From: a virus
Lineage: Duplodnaviria > Caudoviricetes
Direction: 5' to 3' (one strand)
Length of the DNA stretch: 64,000 nucleotides
Virus record (IMG/VR): IMGVR_UViG_3300014205_000014
Location: 1-64,000 of that record
The position numbers were made by a program, and so were the translations under genes. The notes under the pieces are model-generated. The model searched no databases, was not told the DNA's origin, and saw only the letters and a program-made list of their open reading frames with translations. Shown in pieces: positions 2,874-62,086 of this stretch; the stretch's first letter is position 1, and each line of letters starts with the position of its first letter.

Positions 2874-2986
2874 CAGAATCGTATCTGTACTTTTAGGCTA
2901 TTTGAGCGTAAAATAGAGTATCAAAAGGTAGCGCCCACACTGCTTGTAACAGTTGGGCGCTTGAGTAGTCAAAGGAACTAACTACT

Positions 2987-3508
2987 ATGAACAATGATAC
3001 AGGATTCTTGCCGTCCCCGCCAGATAACACTATCATTATTCAGTTGACTAAAGGATACGCAACAATCGTTGATTACGCTGATTTAGACTTGCTGCGATGG
3101 AAATGGAAGGCTTCGGGGAAGTATGTTCGCGCAGCGCGAAATGTATCAATTAAGGGGAAGTGGCACACTATATTAATGCACAGGGCAATTGTTGAGCGTA
3201 TGATTGGCAGAACTCTTGATGGTTCAGAACATGTAGACCACATTGACGGGAATCCGCTTAATAATAGTCGATCAAACCTCCGCATAGTAACCAATACTCA
3301 AAATGCTTGGAATCAGCACGCTTCAAAGAGTAACACGAGTGGATACAAAGGGGTGTGCTGGCATAAACGTCAACAAAAATGGGTTGCACAAATTTGCGTA
3401 AATAGAAGGGTGATCCACCTTGGAACGTTTGAAACACCAGAACAAGGGCATAAAGCATATTGTGAAGCGGCTAAACAATATTTCGGTGAATACGCTAGAT
3501 ATAGCTAG
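2987..3508 (+). CDS. HNH endonuclease with C-terminal AP2 domain (free-standing homing endonuclease)
   Basis: VDHIDGNPLNNSRSNLR HNH motif; NTSGYKGV..WVAQI...HLGTF AP2 signature. Confidence 0.92.
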   Translation: MNNDTGFLPSPPDNTIIIQLTKGYATIVDYADLDLLRWKWKASGKYVRAARNVSIKGKWHTILMHRAIVERMIGRTLDGSEHVDHIDGNPLNNSRSNLRIVTNTQNAWNQHASKSNTSGYKGVCWHKRQQKWVAQICVNRRVIHLGTFETPEQGHKAYCEAAKQYFGEYARYS

Positions 3509-3509
3509 T

Positions 3510-3593
3510 AGCATCAACGGGAAGTCGAAGCAGTATTGTTGGGCAGCTAACCCGGCAGTGCAAGTCCATAAGTTTGAACTGGTCGAGGAGTAA
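3510..3593 (+). pseudogene. Orphan second copy of the ASCH gene 3' end (SINGKSKQYCWAANPAVQVHKFELVEE*)
   Basis: Aligns without gaps to LINSKSKIYRWSANPLVCVHRFEIVE* at the end of 2316..2873; no start codon. Confidence 0.8.
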
Positions 3594-3604
3594 AGGAGCA
3601 AATA

Positions 3605-3844
3605 ATGACGGAACCTCTTAATATCGTGAAGATTACAAGCCAGAAGGCAATTAGGGAAAACACCAACGCACAGGGGCTATTCATAACTGTCATTCAGTCA
3701 GAAGGTGTTGCTGATGACGGGAAATTCTACCGCTGGCTAAACGATCATTGGGGTGATGAACAAGGGTGGGTGCACGAAAGCGGTATGTACCTTGTTATTC
3801 CACTTGGTCGCACCCAAGTTGACACGCCAAACGAACACTGCTAG
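3605..3844 (+). CDS. Hypothetical protein
   Basis: 79-aa ORF with SD AAGGAG. Confidence 0.7.
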   Translation: MTEPLNIVKITSQKAIRENTNAQGLFITVIQSEGVADDGKFYRWLNDHWGDEQGWVHESGMYLVIPLGRTQVDTPNEHC

Positions 3845-3875
3845 ACTGTCTAGCAGGTAACGTGCCTCGGCACAC

Positions 3876-3905
3876 AAAGGGCGCTCATGATCGTGGGCGC
3901 TTTTT
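3876..3905. terminator. Probable bidirectional intrinsic terminator
   Basis: GCGCTCA/TGGGCGC stem flanked by AAAG and TTTTT between convergent genes. Confidence 0.55.
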
Positions 3906-3906
3906 G

Positions 3907-4476
3907 TTACCCCTCCCCCGTGCTGTCCTCAAGATACTTTGCGGCAGCATCATCTTCGCTGATGTCGTACTGCACCTGATCGGCCTGCTTGACGTAATCA
4001 CTTGCTCCATCGTCAGGCGCGGTGGCATTACTCAGCGCTGGTTGCAACACTTCTGACTTCAACATCTTATACGCCGCCATACGAGCGTAAACGTCTGTTT
4101 TGGGATCAAGCGCGGTTTTCAAGAACTCCCCCATGATTTGCGTGAAGTTATCTTGAACCCTATCCGCCATAACTTGCAACTGTTCCAACCGCAGTGGTTG
4201 TAACCATGCCCGTGCATCTGCCAAGGTCTGGTTTTTCGACCATTCGCGCCGTTTGGCTGTGAGCGTAGTTACGGTGATACCCATTGCCTGTGCGACTTGG
4301 GCGTTTACTTCACTCGTGCTGCGGGTTTCAAAGGCCGCGCCAAGACCGCCGTATTCTTCCACGAGTAGCAAATAGACAAGGGCCTGAGTCATCTCAGGGT
4401 TAGATTGGTACAGGGCATCCCACTCATCAGGGGCAATGTCAATTTTTGCAACGATTTGGGAAGGTATTTTGCTCAT
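3907..4476 (-). CDS. HTH protein; terminase small subunit-like or transcriptional repressor
   Basis: HTH-like QVAQAMGITVTTLTAKRREW followed by helical region and acidic tail; only - strand gene in the early arm, divergent from promoter at 4509. Confidence 0.55.
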   Translation of the reverse strand: MSKIPSQIVAKIDIAPDEWDALYQSNPEMTQALVYLLLVEEYGGLGAAFETRSTSEVNAQVAQAMGITVTTLTAKRREWSKNQTLADARAWLQPLRLEQLQVMADRVQDNFTQIMGEFLKTALDPKTDVYARMAAYKMLKSEVLQPALSNATAPDDGASDYVKQADQVQYDISEDDAAAKYLEDSTGEG

Positions 4477-4508
4477 ATTTGTCCTTTCTTTTTTACACGA
4501 AATTGTTG

Positions 4509-4541
4509 TATAATGAGTTCTAAGAGACAGAACCGACTATG
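4509..4541 (+). promoter_or_regulatory. Early promoter (-10 TATAAT) with operator CAGAACCGACTATG
   Basis: TATAAT 4509-4514, operator 4528-4541; 23-bp block repeated at 18164-18186. Confidence 0.7.
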
Positions 4542-5818: not shown

Positions 5819-7018
5819 ATGACCGACCTATCGTTAATGACTATTGATCCGGCAAGCGCCATTGAGGGCGCAAAAGCCCGTTATCAAACCCTGAAAGACC
5901 TCACTAAACAGGTGTTGGTTGAAGGGGTTGACTACGGCACAATTCCCGGCACAGAAAAACCCTGCCTGTACAAAGCAGGTGCGGAAAAGTTGTGTGCGAC
6001 TTTCGGGTTAGACCCGCGTTTTGAAATTCTCGAAAAGATTGAGAATTTCGATGACGAAAAAGGGCTGTTCCATTACGTGATACTGTGCCGCCTCATTCAT
6101 GTGGCATCAGGTGCAGAGATTGCTACAGGCATTGGTTCCTGCAACAGCAAAGAGAACCGCTATCGTTGGCGTTGGGTATCTGAGGATGATATTCCAAACT
6201 ACCTTGATAAGAAAACCCTCAAGAAGCGCGACTCCTCCATCACCGAGCCACAGTTTGCCGTTGAAAAAGCTGAAACAACAGGTCAGTACGGTAAACCCGC
6301 CGAATATTGGCAGCAATTCAAGGATGCAATTGTCAACCATACCGCCTATGCAGGTTCACGCTCCACCAAAAAGGGTACAGAAATGGCGACGTGGATTATC
6401 CCAAGCGTATCCTACAGGATACCCAACGATGAGATATTTACTCTTGCTAACACCATCATGAAAATGGCTTGCAAGCGTTCACTTGTTGCAACAACACTCA
6501 TCGGAACATCAGCCTCCGAGTGGTTCACTCAAGACATGGAGGACATTGCGGACTTCGGTGCAGACTTCGTTCAGGGCAAGGCGACTCCTGCTGTTGCTAC
6601 CCCTGCCCCTGATAAGATCATCGTGGATGATGGCGGCAAGACTGCGACTGAACTTGCTAAACTGAGTCCTGAAGCAGAAGCGGCGGCAAAGGTGAAGGCC
6701 GAGGCAGAAGCAAAGGAAAAGGCGCTCAAGGCGGAGCAAGAGGCTAAAGAGAAAGCGATTGCTGCGGAACGTGATGCGATCATGGCGGCAATGGTCGGTG
6801 ATGATAAGTTGTACCCAACTGCCGCTGAACTGAAGGAACGTATCCATCTGTGTGGTTATGACAGCTACGCCGCAATGCGAGGGGATATGACCAGTGATGA
6901 AGCGCTGATGCTGCTCAGCGTAGATGAACACGATGCCGAGAAAGTCATTGACACAGAGCCGGTTCTGCCTGTGGTGGATGTTGTTGTAACCCCTGGGCCA
7001 GTGAAGGTGAAGAAGTAA
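5819..7018 (+). CDS. Putative ssDNA-annealing/recombination protein
   Basis: DYGTIPGTEKPCLYKAGAEKL N-terminal motif common in phage recombination modules; Ala/Lys/Glu-rich linker; context. Confidence 0.5.
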   Translation: MTDLSLMTIDPASAIEGAKARYQTLKDLTKQVLVEGVDYGTIPGTEKPCLYKAGAEKLCATFGLDPRFEILEKIENFDDEKGLFHYVILCRLIHVASGAEIATGIGSCNSKENRYRWRWVSEDDIPNYLDKKTLKKRDSSITEPQFAVEKAETTGQYGKPAEYWQQFKDAIVNHTAYAGSRSTKKGTEMATWIIPSVSYRIPNDEIFTLANTIMKMACKRSLVATTLIGTSASEWFTQDMEDIADFGADFVQGKATPAVATPAPDKIIVDDGGKTATELAKLSPEAEAAAKVKAEAEAKEKALKAEQEAKEKAIAAERDAIMAAMVGDDKLYPTAAELKERIHLCGYDSYAAMRGDMTSDEALMLLSVDEHDAEKVIDTEPVLPVVDVVVTPGPVKVKK

Positions 7019-7187
7019 CAAGATAAGTATCTGAAAGGAGGTTTTATGTTCGATTACACGAGCAAGGATACAGAACCGGATATGGACTTTTGAGGGGAAA
7101 AGGAGTAAGATTATGGTATCAGTAAATGAAAGCACCCGCACTGTTCAAGCAGTCGGGCGCATGAGTAATCAAAGGACATTGACTACC

Positions 7188-9400: not shown

Positions 9401-9537
9401 TTCGGATTACAATAAGACAGAGCCGAATATGGCTTTTTGACCTCAAATGTGCTAGAATCAAAGACATCTAAATACAAACGGGCGCTTGTGCAGCAAACAC
9501 TTACGCCCGTTCTAAACTATGGAAGGAAAATTTCCAG

Positions 9538-10125
9538 ATGTCTACTCAAGATTCTATCCTCAATACGCCTACCCTGCAAGATGAAATTTGGAAACCAGTT
9601 ATTGGATACGAAGGTATCTACGAGGTTTCTAGATCGGGTTTAGTAAGAGCATTACAGGCCGTAAGGCAGCACAAACCAGGGCGGATATTAAAACCAAAGA
9701 CCACCAATATGGGGTATTTGGAAGTTGGATTGTATAAAGACCGTAAACGTCACTGGTATTTAATTCACCGTCTAGTTGCAGTTGCCTTTCTTCCCCCTCA
9801 ACCAACACCAAAGCATGAGGTTAATCACATTAATTCAAATCGTGCAGATGCACGCGCAGAGAATTTAGAATGGGTAACGAAATCAGAAAACGCTAAACAC
9901 GGGTTGAAATATGGGAACCGTAACAATCATGGCGAATACCACTCAAGGGCAAAACTTACATGGGAACAAGTCAGAGAAATTAGGGTGTTATTTTCAACCG
10001 ATCTATCTGACCAGAGTATTGGGGAAGTGTTCCATGTGAGCAGAGGAGCCATCAAGGAAATACGTCGAGGGGCAAACTGGAAAGAAGACCCGCTTACAAT
10101 AAAAGGTAAATCTGTGGTAAACTAA
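9538..10125 (+). CDS. NUMOD4-HNH homing endonuclease
   Basis: EIWKPVIGYEGIYEVS (NUMOD4); VNHINSNRADARAENLEW (HNH); paralog of 7188..7733. Confidence 0.92.
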   Translation: MSTQDSILNTPTLQDEIWKPVIGYEGIYEVSRSGLVRALQAVRQHKPGRILKPKTTNMGYLEVGLYKDRKRHWYLIHRLVAVAFLPPQPTPKHEVNHINSNRADARAENLEWVTKSENAKHGLKYGNRNNHGEYHSRAKLTWEQVREIRVLFSTDLSDQSIGEVFHVSRGAIKEIRRGANWKEDPLTIKGKSVVN

Positions 10126-10197
10126 AAACAACAGAGTTGAATATGCGTTTAGGGTATTATCATAGGCGACAGATTCCAACCAGAAGCAACAAAATCG

Positions 10198-11581: not shown

Positions 11582-11805
11582 CCTGATTTGGTAGTGAGTA
11601 ATGTCATATTGGACACCTATAAACTCGTATTATTTTTGTAACATCTCTTGGGTTCATGCAAATGATTGAAAACGTTCTCGGTGAGAAAAGGCATATCCGG
11701 CTCTGTAAAATTTACAAAATTCGTTATTTTTTCACAAATGATAGGCCGAATGGTACTTGTAACAGCTTATGATAGTAAGACTGAAAGGAGTAATATATAG
11801 ATAAG

Positions 11806-12511: not shown

Positions 12512-12668
12512 CCAACCATCGCAGACGGGCTTGTACCGTTTGTACGAAACGCAGAGCCGACTATGTATATTGAGAAGGGAGTATGATATGATTGTCTCTA
12601 ACGGAAAACAAAATCGCCACGATGCTTCAACATCTGGCGAAAGAGTAAGTCTAATAAGGAGACTAACT

Positions 12669-13445
12669 ATGGATAATTCTACTCCCATTTCCCCTGTCCC
12701 ACAAGACGAGATATGGTCGCCCATTGCCAACTATGAGGGTATTTATGAAATATCTAACTTAGGGCGCATTAAACATATCAACATCCTTAACAGGGAAGAC
12801 CGCATTATTTCCCCCGAACTATCACATGGACGTTTTAGAGTGCGTCTTTACAAAAGTGGTATTCGAAAAACCTTCTGGATGAGTGATCTTTTAGGTTTGG
12901 ATACCGAAACCCGAAAAACAATTATTCCAGACTTGCCAAATGAAATTTGGAAAGATGTTGGCGGATATGAAAACATTTATCAAGTTTCCAACCTTGGGCG
13001 CGTTAAATCAAGTAAAAAGATCATTCGCGCAACAGTTAATAAGTGGGGATATGTCAACATAGGTCTTTCGAAAAATGGTGTTCAAAAGAAACACCAAGTT
13101 CACCGATTAGTCGCATTGGCGTTTCTTGGCACGCCACCTACCCCACAGCATCAGGTTAATCATATCAATTCATTTCGCAACGACAATCAAGTAATCAACC
13201 TTGAGTGGTGTACCGCGTCAGAAAATGCCATACACTCTTATGTTAACAACCACAGGGTTGTAAAAGGAAGATTTGGACAACCGCGAACAAAACTTACCCC
13301 GGAAAACGTAAATGCCATTAAGGAGATTGTGAAAAGCGGGACAAAACAAACAGAGGCAGCTAGGCTTTACGGTGTAGCAATTTCTACTGTGTGTTCCATC
13401 GTAAATGGCAAAACGCGAAACAAAATTGCAGAACCGAATCTGTAA
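12669..13445 (+). CDS. Homing endonuclease with tandem NUMOD4 domains, HNH and C-terminal HTH
   Basis: EIWSPIANYEGIYEISNLGR and EIWKDVGGYENIYQVSNLGR; VNHINSFRNDNQVINLEW; SD AAGGAG. Confidence 0.92.
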   Translation: MDNSTPISPVPQDEIWSPIANYEGIYEISNLGRIKHINILNREDRIISPELSHGRFRVRLYKSGIRKTFWMSDLLGLDTETRKTIIPDLPNEIWKDVGGYENIYQVSNLGRVKSSKKIIRATVNKWGYVNIGLSKNGVQKKHQVHRLVALAFLGTPPTPQHQVNHINSFRNDNQVINLEWCTASENAIHSYVNNHRVVKGRFGQPRTKLTPENVNAIKEIVKSGTKQTEAARLYGVAISTVCSIVNGKTRNKIAEPNL

Positions 13446-14394: not shown

Positions 14395-14774
14395 ACGACC
14401 TACGCGCCTACGAATGCATGATTGAGGACGTTGAATACTACGAGTCGGTTTACGATGGCTACGGTGGGCATCTTGGCTCTATTCATCAATCGGATGACTT
14501 TTACGGTATCTACTATGCCACTAGCCCATCCAAGGCCAAACACCTGTTCATCAAGGAAAATAACCACAACTACGACCTTGGGTTGGAATACACCAGCCCG
14601 ATTAAAGTTCGGTTGCTGGCTAAAAACGTGGTGGGAATTTTTGAATATACCGGATTTGATGAGGATATTAAAGCCGATTGGGAAAATGCCGATCTGACTG
14701 CTCGTGGGCGGGAGATCGTTGCTGAATGGGAAAAAGTCAGAGCGTACTTGGCAGAAGATGTGGTGCAAGAATGA
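14391..14774 (+). CDS. Hypothetical acidic protein
   Basis: ATGA overlaps at both ends. Confidence 0.65.
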   Translation: MNDLRAYECMIEDVEYYESVYDGYGGHLGSIHQSDDFYGIYYATSPSKAKHLFIKENNHNYDLGLEYTSPIKVRLLAKNVVGIFEYTGFDEDIKADWENADLTARGREIVAEWEKVRAYLAEDVVQE

Positions 14775-15937
14775 ACGATAACACTACTGCCACCAAGTAC
14801 ATTCTGTCGATGCCATTTGACGCAAAGTTTGTCCCTATTATTCCTGAACTCGCAATGCAGATTGGCTTTTACGAAAGTATCCTGCTTCAACAAATATCCA
14901 TCTGGATAAAGAATAGCACCAACATCCATGAAGGTAAGTATTGGGCATACAAGTCGTTGCGTGATATACACGATGAAGATATACCCTATCTAAGTATTGA
15001 AAAGATTCGACGGGTAATCCAAAACCTGAAAGATCAAGGTTACATCTTAATTGGCGACTTCAATGAAAAGGGGTATGACAGAACACAATGGTTCGCATTG
15101 GAACCTGATAAATGTTCGTCATTACTAGGCGTATTCGTCAATGTTCTTAGTGAAAAGAAAGACCTGTCTACAGCAGAGACACCCCTTATTCCTCTCTCAG
15201 AAGCGGGGGGGGTGTCTACAGCAGAGACAACAATACCAGAGAGTCTAATACCTAATACAACAGATAAGAGTACTTATCTGTCAACCGCTTCGCAGGTTGA
15301 GCGAGTTTCCGATCCCGATCCGGAACCAGATGCATCAGATGACGAGCAAGTAGACCTATTCGGCACAATCCCCAAGACCGAGCCGATGCGGAATGTACAC
15401 AAGGCTGCTAAGACCATTGCCACTGCATCAGAACCGACTACGCCCTACAAGGCCATTGTTTCTCCGGTAGTGGAGGAGGACGTGGTGGTGGTCGAGCCAG
15501 CGGGAAAGCCCAAAACCAAGCGACCCCGCAAGGAAGGCGTTACTCCTGCTGAATGTATCAACCCCATGAAGGCGGCGATCATGAAATCGTTTGGGTGGTC
15601 ATGGAAGACCATCAGCAATTCCGAAAAGGGGCAAGTCTACAATGCCGCCAAGCAGCTCTGTGATTGCAACTTCCCGGTGGGCGAGATACAAGACCTGTAT
15701 GATTTTTGCGCGGGTATGTTTGATAAGTTCGGGCCTGTAGCCTTAACCGGACATCAATCGGATTATCGCAAGGAACACAGACCTCAGAATATTGCTCCTG
15801 AGCTTCTTGGTCCACAGAAAAAGGTTGTTCCAGTGGGTGTTTGGTCGATTGTGAGACAGGGATGGGACAAGGTTCGTGAATACAATATTGATTTAGCCTA
15901 TTGGGAAATCGACCCATCGAGAGTAGGAGTTGGATAA
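14771..15937 (+). CDS. Phage replication initiator (N-terminal winged helix)
   Basis: ELAMQIGFYESILLQQI...GKYWAYKS...IRRVIQNLKDQGYI...YDRTQWF, typical of phage initiators; lies upstream of primase/helicase. Confidence 0.7.
   Translation: MNDNTTATKYILSMPFDAKFVPIIPELAMQIGFYESILLQQISIWIKNSTNIHEGKYWAYKSLRDIHDEDIPYLSIEKIRRVIQNLKDQGYILIGDFNEKGYDRTQWFALEPDKCSSLLGVFVNVLSEKKDLSTAETPLIPLSEAGGVSTAETTIPESLIPNTTDKSTYLSTASQVERVSDPDPEPDASDDEQVDLFGTIPKTEPMRNVHKAAKTIATASEPTTPYKAIVSPVVEEDVVVVEPAGKPKTKRPRKEGVTPAECINPMKAAIMKSFGWSWKTISNSEKGQVYNAAKQLCDCNFPVGEIQDLYDFCAGMFDKFGPVALTGHQSDYRKEHRPQNIAPELLGPQKKVVPVGVWSIVRQGWDKVREYNIDLAYWEIDPSRVGVG
15165..15229. repeat. 17-bp direct repeat TGTCTACAGCAGAGACA x2 (candidate origin iterons)
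   Basis: Exact copies at 15165-15181 and 15213-15229 within the initiator gene. Confidence 0.55.
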
Positions 15938-18113: not shown

Positions 18114-18163
18114 AGTTGGGAATAAGTAGCAATCCCCAACTATCGCATTTCGCACGATTGTAT

Positions 18164-18196
18164 TATAATGAGTTCTAAGAGACAGAGTTGAATATG
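18164..18196 (+). promoter_or_regulatory. Promoter (-10 TATAAT) with operator CAGAGTTGAATATG
   Basis: 23-bp identity to 4509-4531. Confidence 0.7.
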
Positions 18197-18980: not shown

Positions 18981-19324
18981 AATTTACCAATAACCCTTTC
19001 GAGGAATTTATCGACCAACTGGACATCGACGGAACGTCTACGCTCGACTGCCCTACCATCCATCCAGCGGTGGAGAAGGTGCTATGGGAGTTGGAAGATG
19101 CGAAGGACTTTGAAACTTTATGGCATCAGCGGCTAACAGACTTGCAACGGGTCGAGCGCCACTGTCTTGCTACTGAACTGAAAGCCAGTCTCATGGACTA
19201 CCTACCCGTGCAGGTGTACAAAGTCGCTGAGCCGGAACTGCAACAACTGCTGCTGTATGTCATCAGCGCGGCGTGGTTGGTACACAGTGAAATCGAAAAA
19301 CAGTTTGGAGGGACTCGTGAATAA
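18977..19324 (+). CDS. Hypothetical protein
   Basis: SD AAGGAG, ATGA overlap. Confidence 0.7.
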   Translation: MKFTNNPFEEFIDQLDIDGTSTLDCPTIHPAVEKVLWELEDAKDFETLWHQRLTDLQRVERHCLATELKASLMDYLPVQVYKVAEPELQQLLLYVISAAWLVHSEIEKQFGGTRE

Positions 19325-20499: not shown

Positions 20500-21529
20500 A
20501 GATAACGGCGCGGTGAAGGAAAAGAAGCAGCCGACGATTGCCGATATTCTTGAAAAGTACAACCTCAAAAACGTTCAAGAGTATGAGGAAGTTAAACGCT
20601 TACCCACCGGCTCATTGGAACTGGATAAATCCATCGGCGGCGGTTGGGGCGTGGGATGCATCAATGAGGTATGGGGTGCTCCTAGTTTTGGCAAGAGTTT
20701 ACTCACCATGATTACCATCGGACGCACCTTGTTCGCGGGTAAAAAAGCCGTTCTGTTCGATCTTGAAAAATCCTTTGATGAGAAGTGGGCTAGACACTTC
20801 ATGGATGTCAACAGCGAGAACTTTATCCTCGTGCAGCAGCATAATGATACCTACGGTGAAGGCATTCTGAACTCCATTCTCGCACTTGCCGATATGGGCG
20901 TGGCATTTATCGCACTGGACTCCAAAGATGCGATTGTATTTGAAGCCGAATTAGAAGGCGGCGTTGGCCCAACCAACATGGGTAAGCGGTCATTTCTATT
21001 GGGAAACTTCGTTCGCCGCCTCTCACAGATTGTAGGCGACAGCGAAACGGCATTCTTGTTTACATCTCAGGTTCGCGCTAATTTTGGCAACACCTATCAA
21101 CCGCTGACAACATCCGGTGGTCATGCGCTCGATCACTTTTGCTCCATTCAGGTATCCCTCAACCAACCCGCCGCGCTCAAGGTATCGGTAGACAAGAAAG
21201 AGGTTGTTGTGGGAACGTCCATCAATACCCACAGCGGCAAAAATAAGACGTTTAAGGCTAAGCAGAACGCGAGTGTGGCTGTGCGTAAGTTCGACACCGA
21301 GGGCGGTGAAATTTGGGCGGTTGATACTGCATCAGAGGTATTTAAAATCGGTACGGAGTTGGGTATGTTCACCCTTGCTGATGGCAAACCTTACGATGGT
21401 GCAGGCAATGCCCATTACGGCGGCGAATTGTTAGGTAGCAAAAACGTGGCTATCTCGCGGCTCCGTGCAGAACCGACTATGTGTTTCCAGATTGAACAGG
21501 CTATTCGTAGCAAATTGGGTTGGGCGTAG
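20492..21529 (+). CDS. recA: RecA/UvsX-like recombinase
   Basis: LPTGSLELDKSIGGG, GAPSFGKS Walker A, FDLEKSFD, TSQVR, TSGGHALDHFCSIQV. Confidence 0.88.
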   Translation: MAKDNGAVKEKKQPTIADILEKYNLKNVQEYEEVKRLPTGSLELDKSIGGGWGVGCINEVWGAPSFGKSLLTMITIGRTLFAGKKAVLFDLEKSFDEKWARHFMDVNSENFILVQQHNDTYGEGILNSILALADMGVAFIALDSKDAIVFEAELEGGVGPTNMGKRSFLLGNFVRRLSQIVGDSETAFLFTSQVRANFGNTYQPLTTSGGHALDHFCSIQVSLNQPAALKVSVDKKEVVVGTSINTHSGKNKTFKAKQNASVAVRKFDTEGGEIWAVDTASEVFKIGTELGMFTLADGKPYDGAGNAHYGGELLGSKNVAISRLRAEPTMCFQIEQAIRSKLGWA

Positions 21530-26042: not shown

Positions 26043-26077
26043 AACACAGAGCCGAATATGTGTTATCATAGAGAAGG

Positions 26078-26302
26078 TTGTCACAAAGGAGACTTAAAAC
26101 GAGTAGAACAACAACAGTCACCATAGACATCGAATGCAAACTAGGTGATGAATACTTTACAGAGTGGGATGAATTATCGCCTGATATACAAGCGTTTTGG
26201 GAGGATAAAGGGTGTAATTGTGAAGGGTCAGGTGTAATCAGTTCACTTTGCAAAGGATGTCCTTTTTGCTCCGTATTTGAAGAGGACAACCCCCAACCAT
26301 GA
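26078..26302 (+). CDS. Cys-rich hypothetical protein; probable start ACG 26099
   Basis: CNCEG...CKGCPFC; SD AAGGAG 7 nt before in-frame ACG. Confidence 0.55.
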   Translation: MSQRRLKTSRTTTVTIDIECKLGDEYFTEWDELSPDIQAFWEDKGCNCEGSGVISSLCKGCPFCSVFEEDNPQP

Positions 26303-27426
26303 AGAAACAAATACGGATGCAGCAAGCCTACGACCTGCGGAAACAGGGGTTTGCACCGAAACAAGCTGCTGAAATCATGGGCATCACCCCTGCGGGGGTG
26401 ACGAGCCTCGCGAGTAAGTGGGAGAAGAAACTGAGGAAGAAACCCGTTATTATCGTTATTTCAGACTCCCTCGCAGAAGAAAACCGCCAACTAAAAGCCA
26501 GAGTCGCGCAATTGGAATCTGAAAAGAAGGGTATGTACGAACCCTCTGCGCGGGACGATACCAATTGGGATATTTGGGACAAAGAGTACAATCGCCTACA
26601 GCAATTGGATCGTATGATCGTCGTTCACAGCATTAATGATATGCATATTCCTGACGAAGATGAACAATGTATCAATATGGATTTAGAGATCAACGCCGCT
26701 GTGCAACCGGACATCACTATTTTCGGTGGTGATATGTACGACTTCGATGTGCTGAGTTTGAAGTACAAACGCATGTACAACCGCCGCCGCAAAGACCCCT
26801 TCCTAGAAGTTGAACCCCGATGGAATGACATTGTAACCACCATTAAAGATAACAACCCGAATGGTATTATTCTTGCTACAGGAGACAATCACGGGCAACA
26901 GCGTATGGAAAAGTTCATTAATGAGTGGATACCTGTTTTCGGAGATCGTCTGACTGCTGATTACAACGCCTTGGTACGCTGCAACAACCTCGTACTGTGG
27001 TTGGGATGGACCCAAGAAGTGTATATGCAGAATACTATTTTTGAACACGGCAAGAGGGCAGGGGCAAATCCCGCAATGGCGAACTTTAAATTTCACGGTG
27101 AATCCTTTAACGATGTAGCAGGTCATGCCCACCGCTGGCAGCAGATTGTATCGGTAAAACAAATGTGGCTACCGGAAGAACATCGGATGCTGTACTACCC
27201 ATTAACCTCTGTCGTCACCGGCTGCTCCCAACATGTGCCACCGCATTACATCACCGATACCAAATCCGCTAACTCGACACAGGGCAGCGCCATAACCCAT
27301 GTCAACCTACATGGACTTGATAGCCATGTCCAAAACATTCTGTATCATCCGCGCGTTGATGGGTCACTGGTTGCTGCGTTCGGAACCCAAGTGTTCAAAC
27401 AAGAGGCAGTGAAGGCAACGGCTTAG
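26299..27426 (+). CDS. N-terminal HTH fused to calcineurin-like metallophosphoesterase
   Basis: HTH (PKQAAEIMGIT); DMH, GGD..D, GDNH, EHG, GHAH motifs. Confidence 0.8.
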   Translation: MKKQIRMQQAYDLRKQGFAPKQAAEIMGITPAGVTSLASKWEKKLRKKPVIIVISDSLAEENRQLKARVAQLESEKKGMYEPSARDDTNWDIWDKEYNRLQQLDRMIVVHSINDMHIPDEDEQCINMDLEINAAVQPDITIFGGDMYDFDVLSLKYKRMYNRRRKDPFLEVEPRWNDIVTTIKDNNPNGIILATGDNHGQQRMEKFINEWIPVFGDRLTADYNALVRCNNLVLWLGWTQEVYMQNTIFEHGKRAGANPAMANFKFHGESFNDVAGHAHRWQQIVSVKQMWLPEEHRMLYYPLTSVVTGCSQHVPPHYITDTKSANSTQGSAITHVNLHGLDSHVQNILYHPRVDGSLVAAFGTQVFKQEAVKATA

Positions 27427-28942: not shown

Positions 28943-29397
28943 TGCGCTATATACCGGATAATGAAGATCGTGAAGATTCGTACAGTCATATCTACGATTC
29001 AATAGATGATGATGAACCTAAAAGAAAACCTAAGCTATCAACATTCACAATGAACTTTGCACGATCATTGGGGTATGGTGGAAAAAGAAAACGATCTGAA
29101 AAGGTGGAACGAACTCCAAAAAATGGATTTGTGTATCTCCTTAAAACACCATTGGACGGTACTCTTTTTAAGATTGGAAAAGCGAGTAATCCGTATAATC
29201 GCTTAAAAACGTTCAATGTTAAACTTCCGTTCCCGATCCAGTATGAATGTCTTATTCAGACTACGGATATGAGTTTATTGGAAAGGGAACTCCACACTAA
29301 GTTTGCATCTAAACGCCTTGATGGGGAGTGGTTTCGGTTAGATCAGGAAGATGTTGAATATATCCGCACATTAGCAAACACAGAAACGGTTCTGTAA
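28939..29397 (+). CDS. T5orf172/MUG113 GIY-YIG-like nuclease
   Basis: GFVYLLK...FKIGKASNPYNRLKTF...LERELHTKFASKRLDGEWF. Confidence 0.88.
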   Translation: MMRYIPDNEDREDSYSHIYDSIDDDEPKRKPKLSTFTMNFARSLGYGGKRKRSEKVERTPKNGFVYLLKTPLDGTLFKIGKASNPYNRLKTFNVKLPFPIQYECLIQTTDMSLLERELHTKFASKRLDGEWFRLDQEDVEYIRTLANTETVL

Positions 29398-30262: not shown

Positions 30263-30292
30263 TTGACAAAGCAGAATCGACTCTGCTATACT
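30263..30292 (+). promoter_or_regulatory. Near-consensus sigma70 promoter with the operator filling its spacer
   Basis: TTGACA 30263-30268, TATACT 30287-30292, GCAGAATCGACTCTGC 30271-30286. Confidence 0.85.
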
Positions 30293-35557: not shown

Positions 35558-35643
35558 ATCTTTCTCCTTCACTAAGTTTACGGATTTACATATTCGGTTC
35601 TGTGTTTCATAGTATCACAACTTTGTAATAGTCGTCAACTCAG

Positions 35644-40254: not shown

Positions 40255-40290
40255 CGGTTTTCCTCCCTGAAATACATAGTCGGTTCTGTG

Positions 40291-46527: not shown

Positions 46528-46607
46528 GTCAATTCCTTCCCGCATACGAGGGTTGACATTGGCATACCCCATATGCTACAATTAATCGAAAAGGGAGAAC
46601 CGATTCT

Positions 46608-47264
46608 GTGAATACCTTCAAACCAGTATTGAACTATGAAAACGATTACGAAGTCAATGAGTGCGGTGTTGTACGCCGGATAAGAGATAAGGGGAACTCC
46701 AAAGCGGGTCATATAATGAAGCAACGTCTTGATCGCAAAGGATACCCGATAGTTTATCTCTCTAAAAACGGCAAAGATAGACATCCTCGTGTTCACAAAC
46801 TTGTAATGGAGGTGTTTGTTGCTCCGATGCCAAAGGGCTACACCGTCAATCACAAGAATGGTATTAAGACGGATAATCACCTTGGGAATTTGGAGTATAT
46901 GACCCCATCCCAAAATTCGCTTCATGCTCAACACGATCTTGAACACTATAAAGTCACTGCCAAACTCACCAACGAAAAGGTCATTGAAATACTTAGCATT
47001 TTGGCTACAGGGGTTGATTGTAGAAAAGTTGCCAAAATGTTTAGTGTATGCGACAACACTATCAATGAGATCAAGAACGGTAACACTTGGAAGTGGATAC
47101 CACGTCCCGACATGAGCAAGACCAAGAATCGCAGTAAGTTGAGCGCCCAAGACCGCACAGAAATTCGTAAACTTCTGAACCAAGGCGTTCCTCAAAAGGA
47201 TATTGCCGAAAAGTTCAGTGTTACCCAATCTCATATTAGTCATATCCTGCACAACAAACGCTAA
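46608..47264 (+). CDS. NUMOD4-HNH homing endonuclease with tandem C-terminal HTHs, antisense in the late operon
   Basis: FKPVLNYENDYEVNECG, VNHKNGIKTDNHLGNLEY. Confidence 0.9.
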   Translation: MNTFKPVLNYENDYEVNECGVVRRIRDKGNSKAGHIMKQRLDRKGYPIVYLSKNGKDRHPRVHKLVMEVFVAPMPKGYTVNHKNGIKTDNHLGNLEYMTPSQNSLHAQHDLEHYKVTAKLTNEKVIEILSILATGVDCRKVAKMFSVCDNTINEIKNGNTWKWIPRPDMSKTKNRSKLSAQDRTEIRKLLNQGVPQKDIAEKFSVTQSHISHILHNKR

Positions 47265-47269: not shown

Positions 47270-48394
47270 CTATGCTTCCTTTACGCCCTCTAGGGCGATC
47301 TTTCTTTTAAAGTTTCCAATCTTGTTGTAGGCATTTGCCCACTGCACCCACTGCCGACTGACATCCCACTCGCCTTTGACCCACACCCGCTTGTAGGCGG
47401 CTTTTTGGAGGCGGAAGCGCATCTCTTTGTCAACCAGCAACTTGTCCAGCGCTTCAAACCATGCTTCCGGTGTGTGCTCCACCAACAACCCATCAACGCC
47501 GTTTCGGATAGTCAGTCGATAGACAGGGTTATCAGTCGCAACCACCGCCGCACCACAGAGTTGGTTCTGCACTTTTCGCACTGCACCTTGCCCCTCGGTT
47601 GCCTTCACAGGGGACTTCCCCATGTTGAACAAATCGGTAGGGTCTACAGGTGCAAGTACAATATCGGACTGCCGAACCATTGAGGCATAGGTGATATAGT
47701 CTCTGCCTTCCTCGTACAGTACCCCATCAATCCCTTTTAGATAGTCGGGGTGATACCCACAAATGGCTAACATCGCCTGTGGGTGCTTTTGGAGCAGGGG
47801 AGGGAGCACATTCTCTAACACTTTCCAATCCTGCTCATGCGTCGATGAACCAGATAACCAGATCATCACGGTATCTTCGGGCAGGGGGCGGTTCACTTCT
47901 CCATAGCGCCATATTTCAGGTGCAAGGAAGTTCGGTAGCACAAAAACAGGCTTGTTAAACCGCTTTCGCATGGTATCTGCCAAGTATGGCGTGGTCACAG
48001 TAATGGCATCGCATTTGGATGCAATAGCCGACATGCTTCCTTCGATGACGGTGCGGTATTCATTGGTAAAGTCATCATCTACTTCGTAGACGGTCTTAAT
48101 TCCATAGAACCGTGCGGCATCAAAAAAACTATCGACAAACCCCGCAGCTTCTTGCTCGTCAATCCGTGTGCGCGGGAGGACGATCATATCCAACTGACTG
48201 AACAGTTGGTGCACCGCTTCACCACCACGTCCCTGCTGTGCTGCTACAAACCACTCCTTGAACACGGAGCGCATATTATCCCATCCAACTTGCCATCCGC
48301 GTTTTTGCAACTCATGGAAAGGTTGGATGACCCTGTAAATTTCACAGGCTCCGGGTTGCTGCTTGTCTTCCGCATGAAGCGCCATTACACGCAT
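47270..48394 (-). CDS. GT-B fold glycosyltransferase within the head-tail module
   Basis: YRVIQPF, YEVDDD, DAITVTTPYL, VLPN, DIVLAP...FNMGKSPVKATE; SD GGAG before ATG 48394. Confidence 0.8.
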   Translation of the reverse strand: MRVMALHAEDKQQPGACEIYRVIQPFHELQKRGWQVGWDNMRSVFKEWFVAAQQGRGGEAVHQLFSQLDMIVLPRTRIDEQEAAGFVDSFFDAARFYGIKTVYEVDDDFTNEYRTVIEGSMSAIASKCDAITVTTPYLADTMRKRFNKPVFVLPNFLAPEIWRYGEVNRPLPEDTVMIWLSGSSTHEQDWKVLENVLPPLLQKHPQAMLAICGYHPDYLKGIDGVLYEEGRDYITYASMVRQSDIVLAPVDPTDLFNMGKSPVKATEGQGAVRKVQNQLCGAAVVATDNPVYRLTIRNGVDGLLVEHTPEAWFEALDKLLVDKEMRFRLQKAAYKRVWVKGEWDVSRQWVQWANAYNKIGNFKRKIALEGVKEA

Positions 48395-48933
48395 CCGGTA
48401 CGCTCCGTCAAAAACTCTAAGCGGGTTTCCCCGCGCCACTGCCATTTGCCTTCTGAGCCACCTTCGGTCAGAAAACTATCATAGACGAACACCCGTGAGG
48501 CGTGTTCCATAAAATCATCTTCGGTGATGGTGAACCACCACGTTCCGTCATCTTTCCGGTTAGACAAGGAGTAGCGCACTCGCGACAACACCACATTGGC
48601 TATCGCTCGTGCTTCGGTCTGATCGACTTCGGGACCAAAGATCATCGTGTACTCCACAATGAAGCGCAAGCGCTCATGCAGTCCCCCGCCAACTTCCCCG
48701 AATACATCCACCATGCCGACATTCTGGCTGCTCATGTTGGAAGTGTGCCGCCATTGGGCATCCCCTGTTTTCACAAGTACCACAATGCGGTAGGGATTTG
48801 CCATACCCCGCGCCAACCCCGCTTGTACCAGACCCGCCTTTGAGTCATCTGCGATATTGGTATTCAACTGTTCATTGAGCCAATTCGCAGTATCCTCCGC
48901 CAGCACATTGAAGATACTTACCGTGCCGGTCAT
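48385..48933 (-). CDS. Head closure / tail terminator-like protein
   Basis: Position after the adaptor; size 182 aa. Confidence 0.55.
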   Translation of the reverse strand: MTGTVSIFNVLAEDTANWLNEQLNTNIADDSKAGLVQAGLARGMANPYRIVVLVKTGDAQWRHTSNMSSQNVGMVDVFGEVGGGLHERLRFIVEYTMIFGPEVDQTEARAIANVVLSRVRYSLSNRKDDGTWWFTITEDDFMEHASRVFVYDSFLTEGGSEGKWQWRGETRLEFLTERTGCV

Positions 48934-50978: not shown

Positions 50979-51030
50979 TTCCTGTTATTCCTTTACAGAT
51001 AGAGAACCGGCTCTGTAAAAAAGCCAGCTC

Positions 51031-53413: not shown

Positions 53414-53511
53414 TTATACCCCACAGAAACACATATTCGGTTCTGCATTATAACGTAGCAAAAGAATGTGGGGAAAGTCAAGGGGGTGAACAGAAGTTGG
53501 TCAGCAATTAC

Positions 53512-55960: not shown

Positions 55961-56013
55961 CGGGGTATCCCTCCTTTTATCCCCATTATATCACAGAACC
56001 GAATATGCGATAT

Positions 56014-57804
56014 TTAGCGACGAGTACCAATCGAACGTTGAGTTGAGCGCCATGCGTGACGTTCGGGGGTAATGGTAATCTGATGTTCATCTGAACGCTG
56101 ATTGAGGTAGAAGTATTGGTTTAACCACGTACAGGTGAGCATAATCATGACCACAATATCCTGCGGGATGTCGTCATCAGGAAGATCGTACTTCGCTAAC
56201 TGAGAAGTTAGCATTTGAATTGTGGGGTAAGCTAGATAACCACGATTCATGAGTTGTTTAGCCGAATTAAGATGACCGTACTTATTCGACTGGTTCATAT
56301 TCATGCCAGTAGATTGAACTCGTGCGAAAGTTTCTACCCATTGGAGATAATTCGATTGCCATCCCGTATTATCGTACCCGCAACGCCCAATCGCTTTATA
56401 CCTCTCCACATAATCAAAAAAAGCAGCCATCCAAGGAAGTGGTGAATTATTACTAAACACCCACTGGAATGCGACGAGTTGTGCTGGAACAGGCACTTCA
56501 GGTGTACCGGGAAACCCTGTAATATCCCATACCCCAATAACCGCTGCGTTGCGGTGAGGCGGGTTGTCCTGCCCCGGATCAGCCATAACAATGTAGGTAT
56601 GATCGTTCTCAGGCGGGATTTCCCATTGATAAATCCCCACACGCGGAGCATCTTTCCTGATAAACCCCGGCGTATTTGCTTCAAGCCCCTTCTTCATACG
56701 CTCATCAAGCGATGCAGACAGACATTTCTTAATGCTATCCCCTGAAAACTGCTTTCCATCCCCTACGGGACGGAACCCGAACAAATTGGAGTTGCGTTCG
56801 TTCTCAGTTGCGCCTACATCACGTTCAAACTTGCGAATTTGTGCCTCAGTGAGCGCCCAATTGTCGTAACTCGCCATCTGCTTGAATACCGTGTTATCGC
56901 TATCCTGCTCTGCCCCATCTGCTAAATCCCACAATTGCGGGTTGTCGTTCGGATTGGCGATGTAGTAAATCAGACCCAAGCGGTCACGCCCTTGATAGTT
57001 GCCACGCAGACGGGAGGAAATGTTACCTCGAACCTTCGGAATGTCCGGCAATTGTTCAGCTTGGTCGATATGCGCCATATCACCCTCAAGGTTCTTAATC
57101 TTGTCAGGGTCATCGCGTACCGAGTAAAACTTAACTGATGTTTCCCCTGTAAAATCATTCCGACAACCCAACTCTTGAGGTTGTTTACGGATGTTGCGGT
57201 AAAGAAAGTTCTGCTCGTACAGTGTTCCTTCCATTTTTTGCAACATACCATCATAAACAGCGGTGGACTGCATAGACACAGGAGCAATGCAGAACCCCCT
57301 AAAGCCGGGGAGTATCGCCATGTTGATGAGCATTTCAATCATACTAATTGATGTTTTCGAACTTCCATAACCGCCAATAAGCACTTTGCTGGTTTGTTTT
57401 AGTTTCATGATGTCGATTTGCCAGTCCTGCAACCAGAACCCGTGATTTACTTGGAAGTTAGGTAGTTTTTGGTTCGGGATAAACTTAGCATAAACCGGAG
57501 AGGAAACAGTAGGCATTGCCAGTCCACGCATGAAGATTTGCCCCGTAACCGCCTTAAAAGGGGTGAGAGGCACTTCATCGTAGTTATAAGCGAAATCGAA
57601 CTTAACAGGCTTATCGAGTTTAAGCCAGCGCTTCATCAGCGCTTTGTAAAGCGCCTTGTAGCGTTCATCTGTCGTGGTCGGAGTAGCAAAAGTACCTGAG
57701 TTCGGCCCTCTAAAATACCAATTGGTAAACAAGTTGGGGTTTTCAGGCGTTCTTTCGAATATATCACGATCCGCCTTAGTGAGTTTATAGAGTTCTCTAC
57801 GCAT
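56014..57804 (-). CDS. terL: Terminase large subunit
   Basis: GGYGSSKT Walker A, HIDQAE Walker B-like, IANP motif III, RNase H-like domain (MADPG...YDNTG...D). Confidence 0.85.
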   Translation of the reverse strand: MRRELYKLTKADRDIFERTPENPNLFTNWYFRGPNSGTFATPTTTDERYKALYKALMKRWLKLDKPVKFDFAYNYDEVPLTPFKAVTGQIFMRGLAMPTVSSPVYAKFIPNQKLPNFQVNHGFWLQDWQIDIMKLKQTSKVLIGGYGSSKTSISMIEMLINMAILPGFRGFCIAPVSMQSTAVYDGMLQKMEGTLYEQNFLYRNIRKQPQELGCRNDFTGETSVKFYSVRDDPDKIKNLEGDMAHIDQAEQLPDIPKVRGNISSRLRGNYQGRDRLGLIYYIANPNDNPQLWDLADGAEQDSDNTVFKQMASYDNWALTEAQIRKFERDVGATENERNSNLFGFRPVGDGKQFSGDSIKKCLSASLDERMKKGLEANTPGFIRKDAPRVGIYQWEIPPENDHTYIVMADPGQDNPPHRNAAVIGVWDITGFPGTPEVPVPAQLVAFQWVFSNNSPLPWMAAFFDYVERYKAIGRCGYDNTGWQSNYLQWVETFARVQSTGMNMNQSNKYGHLNSAKQLMNRGYLAYPTIQMLTSQLAKYDLPDDDIPQDIVVMIMLTCTWLNQYFYLNQRSDEHQITITPERHAWRSTQRSIGTRR

Positions 57805-57806: not shown

Positions 57807-58004
57807 TTACCTAGTTGGAATAGATGATCCGCCGTATGTGTCGTCAAAACCCGATGCAGAACCGGCTCTGACAAAAACCATTATAGCATTATCTCTTATC
57901 GCAAGATAGTCCCTGCCGCCCCAACTAAACCGTGCGGGTTTACCCTGCCCTTCCCAAGCCATGTTCAACCGATCATAATCCGCATGTCCGGGTTCAATTC
58001 TCAT
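57807..58004 (-). CDS. Small hypothetical protein (MRIEPGHADY...)
   Basis: SD GGAG, ATGA overlap with upstream stop. Confidence 0.6.
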   Translation of the reverse strand: MRIEPGHADYDRLNMAWEGQGKPARFSWGGRDYLAIRDNAIMVFVRAGSASGFDDTYGGSSIPTR

Positions 58005-60391: not shown

Positions 60392-61119
60392 TATCGCGCT
60401 GCCTTGCTCAACAGCGCATCAATCGGATGGACGTTGTTCTCTAGCAGCTTGACAGGAATCGCATCACCGTCATACACAATTGCATCTGTGATTTTGTCGT
60501 AGTTTGTTTCAATGCGCCGCTGTGCTGCAAATTTGAGCACATCCACCAACGTGGCCTGTTTTACGTCCGGCAACTGCTGCTGTAATTCCTCTTGCGAGTA
60601 ACCGAGTTCTTTTAACTTGATGAGAATCGCATCGCCTTCTTTAGTGGTGACATTCAGCGGTACGTCAGCAGCTTTAGTCGGTAGTTTAAAAAACTCAGGG
60701 TCGGTGTCAATAAGTGCGATAGTCTCTGCCGGTGCATCCACACGCACCACCGCCACGCCGCCTAAGAGTTCTACTTCGTTCCATGTGGAATCTTCAGTAT
60801 AGACGCGAATGTAATCTCGCATAGCACAGTAACGCCGCGCCCTGATGTACTCATAGACTATCAACGCCGCATCAGATTTAATGTCGTCAAGCAACTGATT
60901 ACGCCCATCTACAAAGTTTAGCCGACCACCGTTTTTTGCCGCCGCCTCTTTGTAGGATTCAAACTCTTTGTCGGTAAGCACTACCGCAGACTGCACTTTA
61001 TAGCACTCAGATTCGAGCGTGGCTATAAGCGCCTCTTGCTCCTTTACAGGTGTAAACAGACCAATAGCCTGCACCTGATTAGGGCCTCTGCGGTAAGGAA
61101 CGATGTACCATGCAAGCAT
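60391..61119 (-). CDS. Hypothetical protein
   Basis: 242-aa ORF coupled to the repeat gene. Confidence 0.7.
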   Translation of the reverse strand: MLAWYIVPYRRGPNQVQAIGLFTPVKEQEALIATLESECYKVQSAVVLTDKEFESYKEAAAKNGGRLNFVDGRNQLLDDIKSDAALIVYEYIRARRYCAMRDYIRVYTEDSTWNEVELLGGVAVVRVDAPAETIALIDTDPEFFKLPTKAADVPLNVTTKEGDAILIKLKELGYSQEELQQQLPDVKQATLVDVLKFAAQRRIETNYDKITDAIVYDGDAIPVKLLENNVHPIDALLSKAAR

Positions 61120-61128
61120 AACTAGACC

Positions 61129-61257
61129 TCATGCACAAAATGCCGAGCCAACGCAGCGCATATTCCAAATCAACGCATCGGGATAGGCCGCCGCCAACAA
61201 GACAATAGCCACAATTAACAGCACTGCGATTCCAATGACGACCAGTTTAATTTTCAT
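61129..61257 (-). CDS. 42-aa membrane peptide (MKIKLVVIGIAVLLIVAIVLLAAAYPD...), absent from the ORF track
   Basis: SD GAGG/AGGT upstream; single TM helix. Confidence 0.55.
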   Translation of the reverse strand: MKIKLVVIGIAVLLIVAIVLLAAAYPDALIWNMRCVGSAFCA

Positions 61258-61321
61258 ATTACCTGCCTCGCAATTTACGGTATACATTCGGTGTCCGTCC
61301 TAACTATATACCCTATTACGA

Positions 61322-61750
61322 TTAGTTCAGGTTAATGATACCTTCGCTGTTCCACTGGATCGTGAATGTGCCATTGCTGCACGACTTATCCGCCGCAAAG
61401 TCGATGTAGCAAAGAAGTTCGTCTGCCGTTGCCGCACCACCGCGCTTTTTGTAGATGACTGCCCCACGCGCCGTGAAAGTGGCACTCGTCCAACTCGCAT
61501 CTGCCGCATCCAACCGTGCTTCATCGGCTGTCGTATCAATCGCGTCCGTTAGCGAAGCCAAGGCCACCCCACCTGTGGTGTACCCGTTGCCGTTCGCTAC
61601 CTCATTTGTGACATCGTTTTGGAAGTCGTCGGTGTCAATGTTGGGAGTGTATGAGGAAGTCACCAACATGCAGTACATGGCATCGGTGTCCCAATCAATC
61701 GACCCGTTGCTCAGGTACTTCTTGCCGTTGTTGTAAATTACTGATGCCAT
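61322..61750 (-). CDS. Virion structural / minor tail protein
   Basis: MASVIYN...GSIDWDTD...LVTSSYTPN...EVANGNGYTTGG...YIDF...GTFTIQW, a widespread phage tail-associated family. Confidence 0.75.
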   Translation of the reverse strand: MASVIYNNGKKYLSNGSIDWDTDAMYCMLVTSSYTPNIDTDDFQNDVTNEVANGNGYTTGGVALASLTDAIDTTADEARLDAADASWTSATFTARGAVIYKKRGGAATADELLCYIDFAADKSCSNGTFTIQWNSEGIINLN

Positions 61751-62010
61751 TATTTCTGTACCTCCGTATTAATGCTCAGGCGGGGTGCATTGACAATCGC
61801 ATTGATCTTCTGCACCTGTTCTTCGGTCAACTCAGCACCGAATTTCGCGCTAACGTCCTGCACCTGTTGTTTCAGGCTGTACCGCGCCTTCAGATCACGG
61901 CGGTATTCCCGCAGTGCATCCACTTCACGGCCTGCCGCCAAACTTTCAGCCAACAGTTCGTCATAGGTCATCTCGTCCAGTTCTGCCGGACTCTTCATTT
62001 CGAAATCCAT
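61750..62010 (-). CDS. Coiled-coil hypothetical protein
   Basis: SD AAGGAG before ATG 62010; operator at 62029. Confidence 0.65.
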   Translation of the reverse strand: MDFEMKSPAELDEMTYDELLAESLAAGREVDALREYRRDLKARYSLKQQVQDVSAKFGAELTEEQVQKINAIVNAPRLSINTEVQK

Positions 62011-62086
62011 CTCGTTCTCCTTTAAACACATAGTCGGTTCTGCAAAAGCCTAAAGTAAAATTGTCCCAAAAGTCAAATGCTAATGG

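Follow-up and report, generated by a model that had tools for sequence, protein, structure and literature searches.

The 80,167-bp phage record IMGVR_UViG_3300014205_000014 from IMG/VR (G000 in the following) carries about 35 copies of a 14-bp word, and these copies are dyad-symmetric, non-randomly placed, specific to their phage lineage and confined to phage DNA. We examined the first 64,000 bases of the record (the window) alongside the rest of the genome and a set of relatives. Counts for the window (1-64000) are kept apart from those for the whole genome, and the stretch beyond the window is designated L105, with L105:5300 corresponding to genome 69300. From the form and distribution of the sites we infer that they constitute a docking array for a single dimeric DNA-binding protein, encoded by the phage itself, which in G000 would most likely act as a genome-wide regulator of transcription. 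We put the probability of this reading at roughly 0.5. Its transcriptional part is suggested because nearly all sites lie at gene boundaries, several of them in or next to promoter elements; such a regulator might operate a switch in the lytic cycle or silence genes in a maintained state.

Number, symmetry and orientation of the sites

The original prediction for this window, made from its letters alone, described a multi-copy 14-bp pseudo-palindrome, and the motif is indeed far more frequent than in shuffled sequence. Allowing up to three mismatches to the idealised palindrome CAGAACCGGTTCTG, we find 19 matches in the window, compared to 2.59 +/- 1.52 in shuffles (maximum 8). CAGARCCGNNTATG is present in 17 exact copies genome-wide against 0 for the reversed control pattern, and CAGARCCGRNTMTG with at most one mismatch returns 36 strand-hits, equivalent to 31 distinct sites, where shuffles return 0.43. 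A dyad model of the form CA(G/T)A-N2-CG-N2-T(A/C)TG recovers 35 sites in the whole genome and 23 in the window; a one-mismatch pattern scan contributes an extra variant at 15429 and raises the window count to 24. Both the early and the late arm are covered. The rightward arm runs from ~69.7 kb through the record ends, which share a 123-bp terminal repeat, to 30.25 kb and holds replication, recombination and many small genes, and the leftward arm runs from ~69.5 kb to 30.39 kb and holds the terminase, portal, capsid and tail genes.

One frequent form, CAGAACCGAMTATG, looks asymmetric and first suggested a promoter or RNA signal. Half-sites come in only two types, however, a CAGARC-like one (strong, S) and a CATAKT-like one (variant, W), joined across a CG centre, and the asymmetric-looking variants are mixtures of the two that assort about independently: the pairings SS, SW and WW occur 11, 21 and 3 times, with 13.2, 16.6 and 5.2 expected under independence. 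Because the halves combine in this near-independent fashion, and because the relative G001 carries the perfect palindrome AGAACCGGTTCT, the site in G000 is, judged by its letters, a dyad of the kind that signals a dimeric DNA-binding protein.

Could the word instead be a one-strand, orientation-dependent signal, either a phage-specific promoter or an RNA element of the 5' leader next to the ribosome-binding site? Mixed sites are strongly co-oriented with the downstream gene, the S half being upstream relative to local transcription in 18 of 21 (co-oriented to anti-oriented 18:3). The gap that separates the word from the start codon tends to be 17-20 nt, the word is followed by a T-rich YRTTT tail, and ordinary promoters are lacking in the late arm. 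Yet dyad-like assortment of half-sites and the perfect palindrome of G001 would be superfluous in a promoter or an RNA site, our protein scans revealed no RNA polymerase gene, the frequent variants are unable to fold into an RNA hairpin (by inspection of their sequence), spacing to the -10 element varies, and adjacency to the ribosome-binding site is weak in relatives. We therefore regard a one-strand signal as improbable, and rejected the phage promoter as the main idea on dyad symmetry and variable spacing to the -10 element. A hairpin or terminator reading was likewise rejected, given that the frequent variants are unable to pair and that no enrichment of terminator-like sites is seen. Note that part of the orientation bias is inherited, five sites belonging to copies of one endonuclease leader. 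The remainder could reflect selection against an RNA hairpin near the ribosome-binding site, a direction-dependent roadblock like that of phage L5, or the direction of replication.

Gene boundaries, promoters and endonuclease cassettes

Sites avoid coding sequence to a striking degree. Twenty of 32 are strictly intergenic (7.5% expected), seven of 32 fall at gene ends, within the final 75 nt, and three of 32 were scored as gene-internal (69% expected), one of which (12552) is internal only by virtue of a probable start-codon miscall. Deep positions within long open reading frames (ORFs) account for 2 of 21 sites as opposed to an expected 62%. The portal gene (53432) and the major capsid gene (51002) each have a site in front of them, and further sites recur in the tail module (47556, 46595, 40275, 35589). 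The junctions before portal and capsid bear a site in both G000 and G001. The earlier description of copies as intergenic or in the last codons of genes, and as lying between late genes, is thus borne out, and every position it singled out (30272, 4528, 18183, 53432, 55994 and 46595) holds.

Contact with promoters takes several forms. The sites at 30272 (within TTGACA-N18-TATACT), 55994, 26047 and genome 65277 occupy a promoter spacer or abut a -10 element, and those at 53432, 11692, 9418, genome 68345, 35589, 57857, 46595 and 4528/18183 follow a -10 element by 1-13 nt. Spacing between word and -10 element ranges overall from -3 to +13, a variability to be expected of independent operator modules rather than of a fixed promoter part. 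Of 33 sites, 19 (58%) have a strong -10-like hexamer no more than 20 bp away, compared with 39% of other intergenic windows (p=0.03), so that the promoter contact claimed in the original prediction stands at the sites named there and as an enrichment, albeit a modest one. The association is clearer in G001, with a -10-like hexamer no more than 11 nt from 59% of sites, where 16% would be expected.

If a dimeric regulator does read these sites, each of its halves would recognise one half-site, CAGARC (strong) or CATAKT (variant), across the CG centre. A regulator bound between the -35 and -10 elements or across the start point would block initiation, and at a site without a promoter it might serve as a roadblock or mark a boundary. 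At the endonuclease cassettes, with the site centred ~40 bp before the inferred start, the outcome could be repression or activation.

These cassettes merit separate consideration. G000 encodes eight homing endonuclease genes, and seven have a site just upstream; the exception, a GIY-YIG gene at genome 77126, limits the earlier statement that all of them belong to the regulon. Four of the seven share a leader that consists of the site, 21 nt, a -10-like hexamer, a GC-rich hairpin and a Shine-Dalgarno (SD) sequence (window 2860-2990, 7057-7180 and 9404-9545; L105:9513-9660). This shared leader puts the dyad centre near -40 from the inferred start and shows that mobile endonuclease genes took up the word for their own expression. 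For the HNH gene annotated from 7113, the real start probably lies further downstream. Elsewhere, a promoter-plus-site module (TATAATgagttctaagagaCAGA...) is found twice, at window 4505-4541 and 18160-18196, before unrelated genes.

Taken to the extreme, all copies might be passive footprints of mobile cassettes (endonuclease promoters and small copied modules) without a function of their own, as the seven site-bearing endonuclease genes with their common leader and the duplicated TATAATgagttctaagaga-plus-site module would allow. We consider this quite improbable: ~27 sites do not adjoin endonuclease genes, arrays occur in G001 and G005 although family clustering finds no HNH genes there, only the 14-mer and not its flanks is conserved at most sites, and the portal and capsid positions are shared with G001.

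Table 1. Sites of the 14-bp word in G000 and two candidate binding proteins (window coordinates unless marked otherwise).
Feature	Position	Strand	Context
CAGAATCGTATCTG	2874..2887	+	directly past stop of 2316-2873; 21 nt before TAAAAT of HNH-AP2 cassette
CAGAACCGACTATG	4528..4541	+	13 nt past TATAAT; divergent gap 3907-4476(-)/4582-5139(+)
CAGAGCCGGTTCTG, near-perfect palindrome	6954..6967	.	final 51 nt of 5819-7018
CAGAACCGGATATG	7071..7084	+	HNH cassette; 21 nt before TAAGAT
CAGAGCCGAATATG	9418..9431	+	4 nt past TACAAT; 21 nt before TGcTAGAAT of HNH cassette
CAGAGTTGAATATG, variant	10132..10145	+	just past HNH gene 9538-10125
CAGAGCCGGATATG (minus strand)	11692..11705	-	anti-oriented to arm; 3 nt past minus-strand TTGTGA-N17-TAAATT
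CAGAGCCGACTATG	12552..12565	+	22 nt before SD-led ATG of HNH gene ending at 13445
CAGAACCGAATCTG	13429..13442	.	ends on stop codon of HNH gene; half-site repeat at 13456
CAGAACCGACTACG, one mismatch	15429..15442	+	within DnaD-like initiator gene 14726-15937
CAGAGTTGAATATG, variant	18183..18196	+	behind TATAATgagttctaagaga leader copy, same leader at 4528; 13 nt past TATAAT
CAGAACCGACTATG	21468..21481	+	final 48 nt of RecA/UvsX-like gene
CAGAGCCGAATATG	26047..26060	+	directly followed by TGtTATCAT; upstream of 26078-26302 and helix-turn-helix/phosphoesterase gene
CAGAAACGGTTCTG, palindromic	29381..29394	.	ends 3 nt before stop of T5orf172-domain gene; 19 nt before next start
CAGAATCGACTCTG	30272..30285	.	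fills spacer of TTGACA-N18-TATACT where the two arms converge
site	35589..35602	-	6 nt past minus-strand TTGACG-N18-TACTAT; 31 nt before start of 35138-35557
site	40275..40288	-	between tail-module genes; 20 nt before start of 39901-40254
GAGAACCGATTCTG	46595..46608	.	13 nt past TTGACA-N18-TACAAT; ends on GTG start of HNH gene 46608-47264(+)
CAGAGTTGGTTCTG, variant	47556..47569	.	within glycosyltransferase-like gene 47270-48445
palindromic site	51002..51015	.	23 nt before major capsid start; orthologous G001 junction also has a site
site	53432..53445	-	1 nt past TTATAAT; 18 nt before portal start; G001 site 12 nt before its portal gene
anti-oriented site	55994..56007	+	abuts TGATATAAT (TATAAT) of minus-strand promoter-like element
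near-perfect palindrome	57857..57870	.	9 nt past TGcTATAAT, in small conserved gene upstream of large terminase
site	62029..62042	-	18 nt before start of 61750-62010
GAGAACCGAATATG	genome 78115-78128 (L105:14115-14128)		supplies SD-like GAGAA and ATG start of SSB gene
candidate reader 1	3907..4476	-	189-aa all-helical helix-turn-helix protein; only minus-strand gene in plus arm
candidate reader 2	26299..27426	+	N-terminal helix-turn-helix, coiled coil, Mre11/SbcD-like metallophosphoesterase with all catalytic motifs

Related phages and candidate binding proteins

The relative G001 (54 kb, 66% complete, 58% G+C) contains its perfect palindrome 17-21 times, so that it shares the word with G000 despite a portal protein only 39% identical and a different G+C content. 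Beyond this pair, every sizeable relative retrieved through its portal gene, except the 30-kb fragment G002, has an over-represented palindrome of its own, 11-18 bp in length. G003 carries 31 copies of CGGAACGTTCCG, G004 15 of ATGGGAAWTTCCCAT in 25 kb, and G005 29 of TTCGAY-NN-ATCGAA; a phage region in the Chloroflexia metagenome-assembled genome (MAG) G006 has 26 of ATTTCCnGCGCnGGAAAT. Partial loci show the same on a smaller scale, with TCCCCCGGGGGA in L042, L078 and L108 (3-6 per locus), TGGGAATTCCCA in L055-L058 (3-5), TCCAASTTGGA in L071-L082 (3-7) and TAGCCSGGCTA in L084-L086 (4). Palindrome density is ~1 per 2.5-3.7 kb in G003, G005 and the G006 phage region and 1 per 1.7 kb in G004, and mean site spacing is ~2.5-2.7 kb in four genomes. 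The extended 19-mer form of the G000 word was found in no other IMG/VR contig, and a literature search by the word sequences themselves returned nothing relevant.

G006 is informative as to whether such words belong to the phage or to its host. With up to one mismatch the G006 word has 24 sites, of which 23 are situated in C10:6.8-100.3 kb of this 5.2-Mb genome, beside host-type genes, and because of this confinement we conclude that the word is a property of phage DNA and not a host regulon. The region (L119-L124, C10:1-120000) has many split structural genes (capsid, terminase and tube), which may indicate decay or assembly indels. Host-like genes occur on its right flank and a search for a tyrosine integrase found none within the region; it is likely an integrated prophage, the alternative being a chimeric join.

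The same data bear on the suggestion that the phage exploits sites of LexA or another global host factor. The GAAC/GTTC half-site, as the original prediction pointed out, resembles SOS boxes of the Gram-positive type, and a common host factor might explain why G000 and G001 share a word at such divergence. LexA boxes of the Gram-positive and Dehalococcoides type read GAAC-N4-GTTC, however, and the spacing is N2 in G000 and G001 and N0 in G003. The palindromes of other relatives are unrelated, the G006 word keeps to the phage region, and across 151 genomes of the candidate host class AGAACCGGTTCT shows no excess, with 19 sites, fewer than the reversed control (an indirect test, the class being that of the likely host). 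The LexA resemblance consequently does not hold up, and a host regulon is very improbable.

Which protein might read the array? Scans of ~70 proteins against Pfam, PHROG and NCBIfam revealed no classical repressor. In agreement with the earlier remark that the window has no clear CI/LexA S24-peptidase gene, searches with PF00717 (S24 peptidase), PF00589 (tyrosine integrase) and PF00239 (serine recombinase/resolvase) found none encoded in G000, G001, G003, G004 or G005. With no integrase, resolvase or S24 peptidase, and with eight homing endonuclease genes, the further claim that one regulator silences the whole genome in a carrier state is unproven.

Two genes are worth following as leads. The first (3907-4476) encodes a helix-turn-helix (HTH) protein, and its divergent promoter gap holds site 4528; a conserved HTH gene that runs counter to its arm and has a site in the divergent gap speaks for a regulator. 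The protein is one of a small family whose HTH core, VAxxMGISxxTLxxxRREW, is clear; its closest homologues are 88% and 60% identical, and its model is all-helical (pLDDT 72). A profile of the family finds members in G003 and G005, each facing against its neighbours and with differing recognition helices. Weak phBC6A51-like matches raised the idea of a TerS/pac protein, which is unlikely given the position and strand of the gene. The second lead (26299-27426) is common to G000 and G001 (31% identity) and flanked by sites in both. Among its 12 database homologues, at 94-44% identity, the enzyme part is conserved and the first ~55 residues, which comprise the HTH, are hypervariable. Next to it, a ParM/actin-like gene (27495-28547), common to G000 and G001, overlaps a following 132-aa ORF that sits where a ParR adaptor would be expected (window 27495-28942), an arrangement that hints at plasmid-like maintenance or DNA positioning.

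A number of observations weigh against a transcriptional regulator as the reader of the array. The promoter association in G000 is modest (p=0.03), and a promoter and terminator scan of its late arm showed no excess of sigma-70-type promoters or of terminators. In relatives, 21-47% of sites are situated deep inside long ORFs, and sites in G003, G005 and G006 have no association with -10 elements. Gaps between sites in G000 are more even than chance would have it (coefficient of variation 0.60, P=0.001), which would also fit a structural DNA role. Both candidate proteins are weak: fold matches of the first, to MarR type, the NtrC DNA-binding domain and phBC6A51, do not exceed Z=5.1, and the second has recognition helices that differ between G000 and G001 although the word is shared, and lacks a homologue in G003 and G005. 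Iterative profile searches recovered no non-structural family common to all array-bearing relatives; the widest-spread one, SSB, went undetected in G001, which is 66% complete. (In both G003 and G004 the SSB stop codon has a site 4-5 nt behind it.) Finally, the authors who described a comparable repeat in the Cluster O mycobacteriophages concluded that "a transcriptional regulatory function seems unlikely" (PMC4351075).

Much of this would be accommodated if the sites docked a dimeric phage protein with a job at the DNA level, be it genome organisation and segregation, the start of recombination or replication, or cutting by the HTH-Mre11-like enzyme. Spacing is more even than random in G005 and G001 as well as in G000, the deep ORF positions and the missing -10 link in relatives would follow, and Cluster O phages present the same picture. 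G000 and G001 have in common the ParM-like gene and the site-flanked HTH-coiled-coil-Mre11/SbcD-like protein, and if replication started near the 69.5 kb divergence, the orientation bias would fit fork direction as well as transcription. Against this, the avoidance of coding DNA in G000 is much stricter than a signal acting purely at the DNA level would require, several sites are within promoter spacers or abut -10 elements, and no candidate protein is common to all array-bearing relatives. We regard a purely DNA-level role as the main rival and one to be taken seriously, though as less likely in G000 than regulation of transcription. A related and equally tentative suggestion is that the array is a general phage feature, in which even, lineage-specific palindromes are read by a fast-evolving dimer that organises the whole DNA, with drift towards boundaries and co-option by promoters and endonuclease cassettes in the G000 lineage. 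The organising roles would include compaction, segregation with the ParM-like actin, and programmed recombination or replication starts, perhaps via the HTH-Mre11-like enzyme.

Genome context and known systems

Searches of cultured phages (megablast, tblastn) revealed no relative of G000 at the DNA or portal level and one weak primase match only. Closest portal relatives are 84% and 63% identical, and viral and metagenome scans for closer relatives, using the HTH family and a close portal set, found none. Because portal relatives in GTDB genomes derive mostly from Anaerolineae/Chloroflexota MAGs, Chloroflexota is the likely host phylum.

Several neighbouring features deserve mention. The best-conserved protein between G000 and G001, at 58% identity and ahead of terminase and portal, is a DUF5131 protein (Gp37/Gp68, radical-SAM-related; window 19257-20135). 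A 596-aa protein (56014-57804), likely the large terminase, is conserved in 75 of 80 loci, and directly upstream of it an ORF of 65-81 aa (window 57807-58004), within which both a promoter-like element and a site are found, is kept in 32 relatives; neither has a Pfam or PHROG match. The window further encodes a DNA methyltransferase (23153-24421), a ClpP-like protease (25497-26042) and a small SAM-methyltransferase (33968-34459), and the late operon includes glycosyltransferase-like genes (31994-32962 and 47270-48445). A candidate replication origin lies where the arms diverge, in the form of a low-complexity stretch rich in ACACATA/TATAG (L105:5300-5650, genome 69300-69650) with the palindrome GTCGGAATTCCGAC behind it.

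Phages have been known to carry dispersed palindrome arrays since L5 and Corndog, with reader and mechanism established only for the L5 type. What is new here is a whole uncultured clade, probably of Chloroflexota phages, in which, one fragment apart, every sizeable genome that we examined has a word of its own. The differing words offer a natural co-variation series from which the reader protein might be traced, and endonuclease genes riding on the signal argue that the word controls expression in at least the G000 lineage. Identifying the binder would allow gene switches to be tested directly against genome-organising devices.

The conserved inverted repeats of phiC31, the C1 operators of P1 and the KorA/KorB operators of IncP plasmids exemplify one regulator acting on a dozen or more dispersed operators in mobile genomes of 40-95 kb. 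Those of phiC31 and IncP are palindromic, and in all three systems sites are at defined promoters and the binders are known. Many sites in G000, by contrast, have no recognisable promoter.

L5 and other Cluster A phages have more than 20 stoperators of 13-14 bp at promoters and in short intergenic gaps, late operons included (PMC9283540, PMC6550527). The 35 sites of G000 resemble these in number, length and presence in late operons, in words that are specific to lineages, and in 18:3 co-orientation with transcription; with an array on gene boundaries and promoters of both arms, the comparison with multi-site repressor schemes drawn in the original prediction was apt. L5-type sites are truly asymmetric, however, and bound by a monomer with two DNA-binding domains, and L5 is temperate, with an integrase (PMC9283540, PMC6550527) and an immunity repressor. 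The G000 site is a dyad, perfectly so in G001, and G000 has no integrase, resolvase or S24 repressor, only an uncharacterised counter-facing HTH gene. No Cluster A repressor homologue was detected in G000, in the course of searches not aimed at one. On site symmetry and lifestyle, then, the array fails to qualify as a member of the L5 type.

Cluster O mycobacteriophages such as Corndog have 34 copies of a 17-bp dyad, TGTTCGG-NNN-CCGAACA, a third of them inside genes and absent from the host (PMC4351075). Here, too, a short inverted repeat taken as the site of a dimeric protein is present in more than 30 copies throughout a siphovirus-type genome of ~70-80 kb, in intergenic and coding sequence alike, and both have glycosyl- and methyltransferase genes in the structural operon. 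Our cultured-phage searches uncovered no sequence relationship to G000 beyond the single weak primase match. The word in G000 differs in being 14 bp long with two half-site variants, in being far more strictly intergenic, in touching -10 elements and in having mixed sites oriented with transcription, which those of Corndog are not. In its descriptive features the G000 array nonetheless matches the Cluster O type, in a phage unrelated to it.

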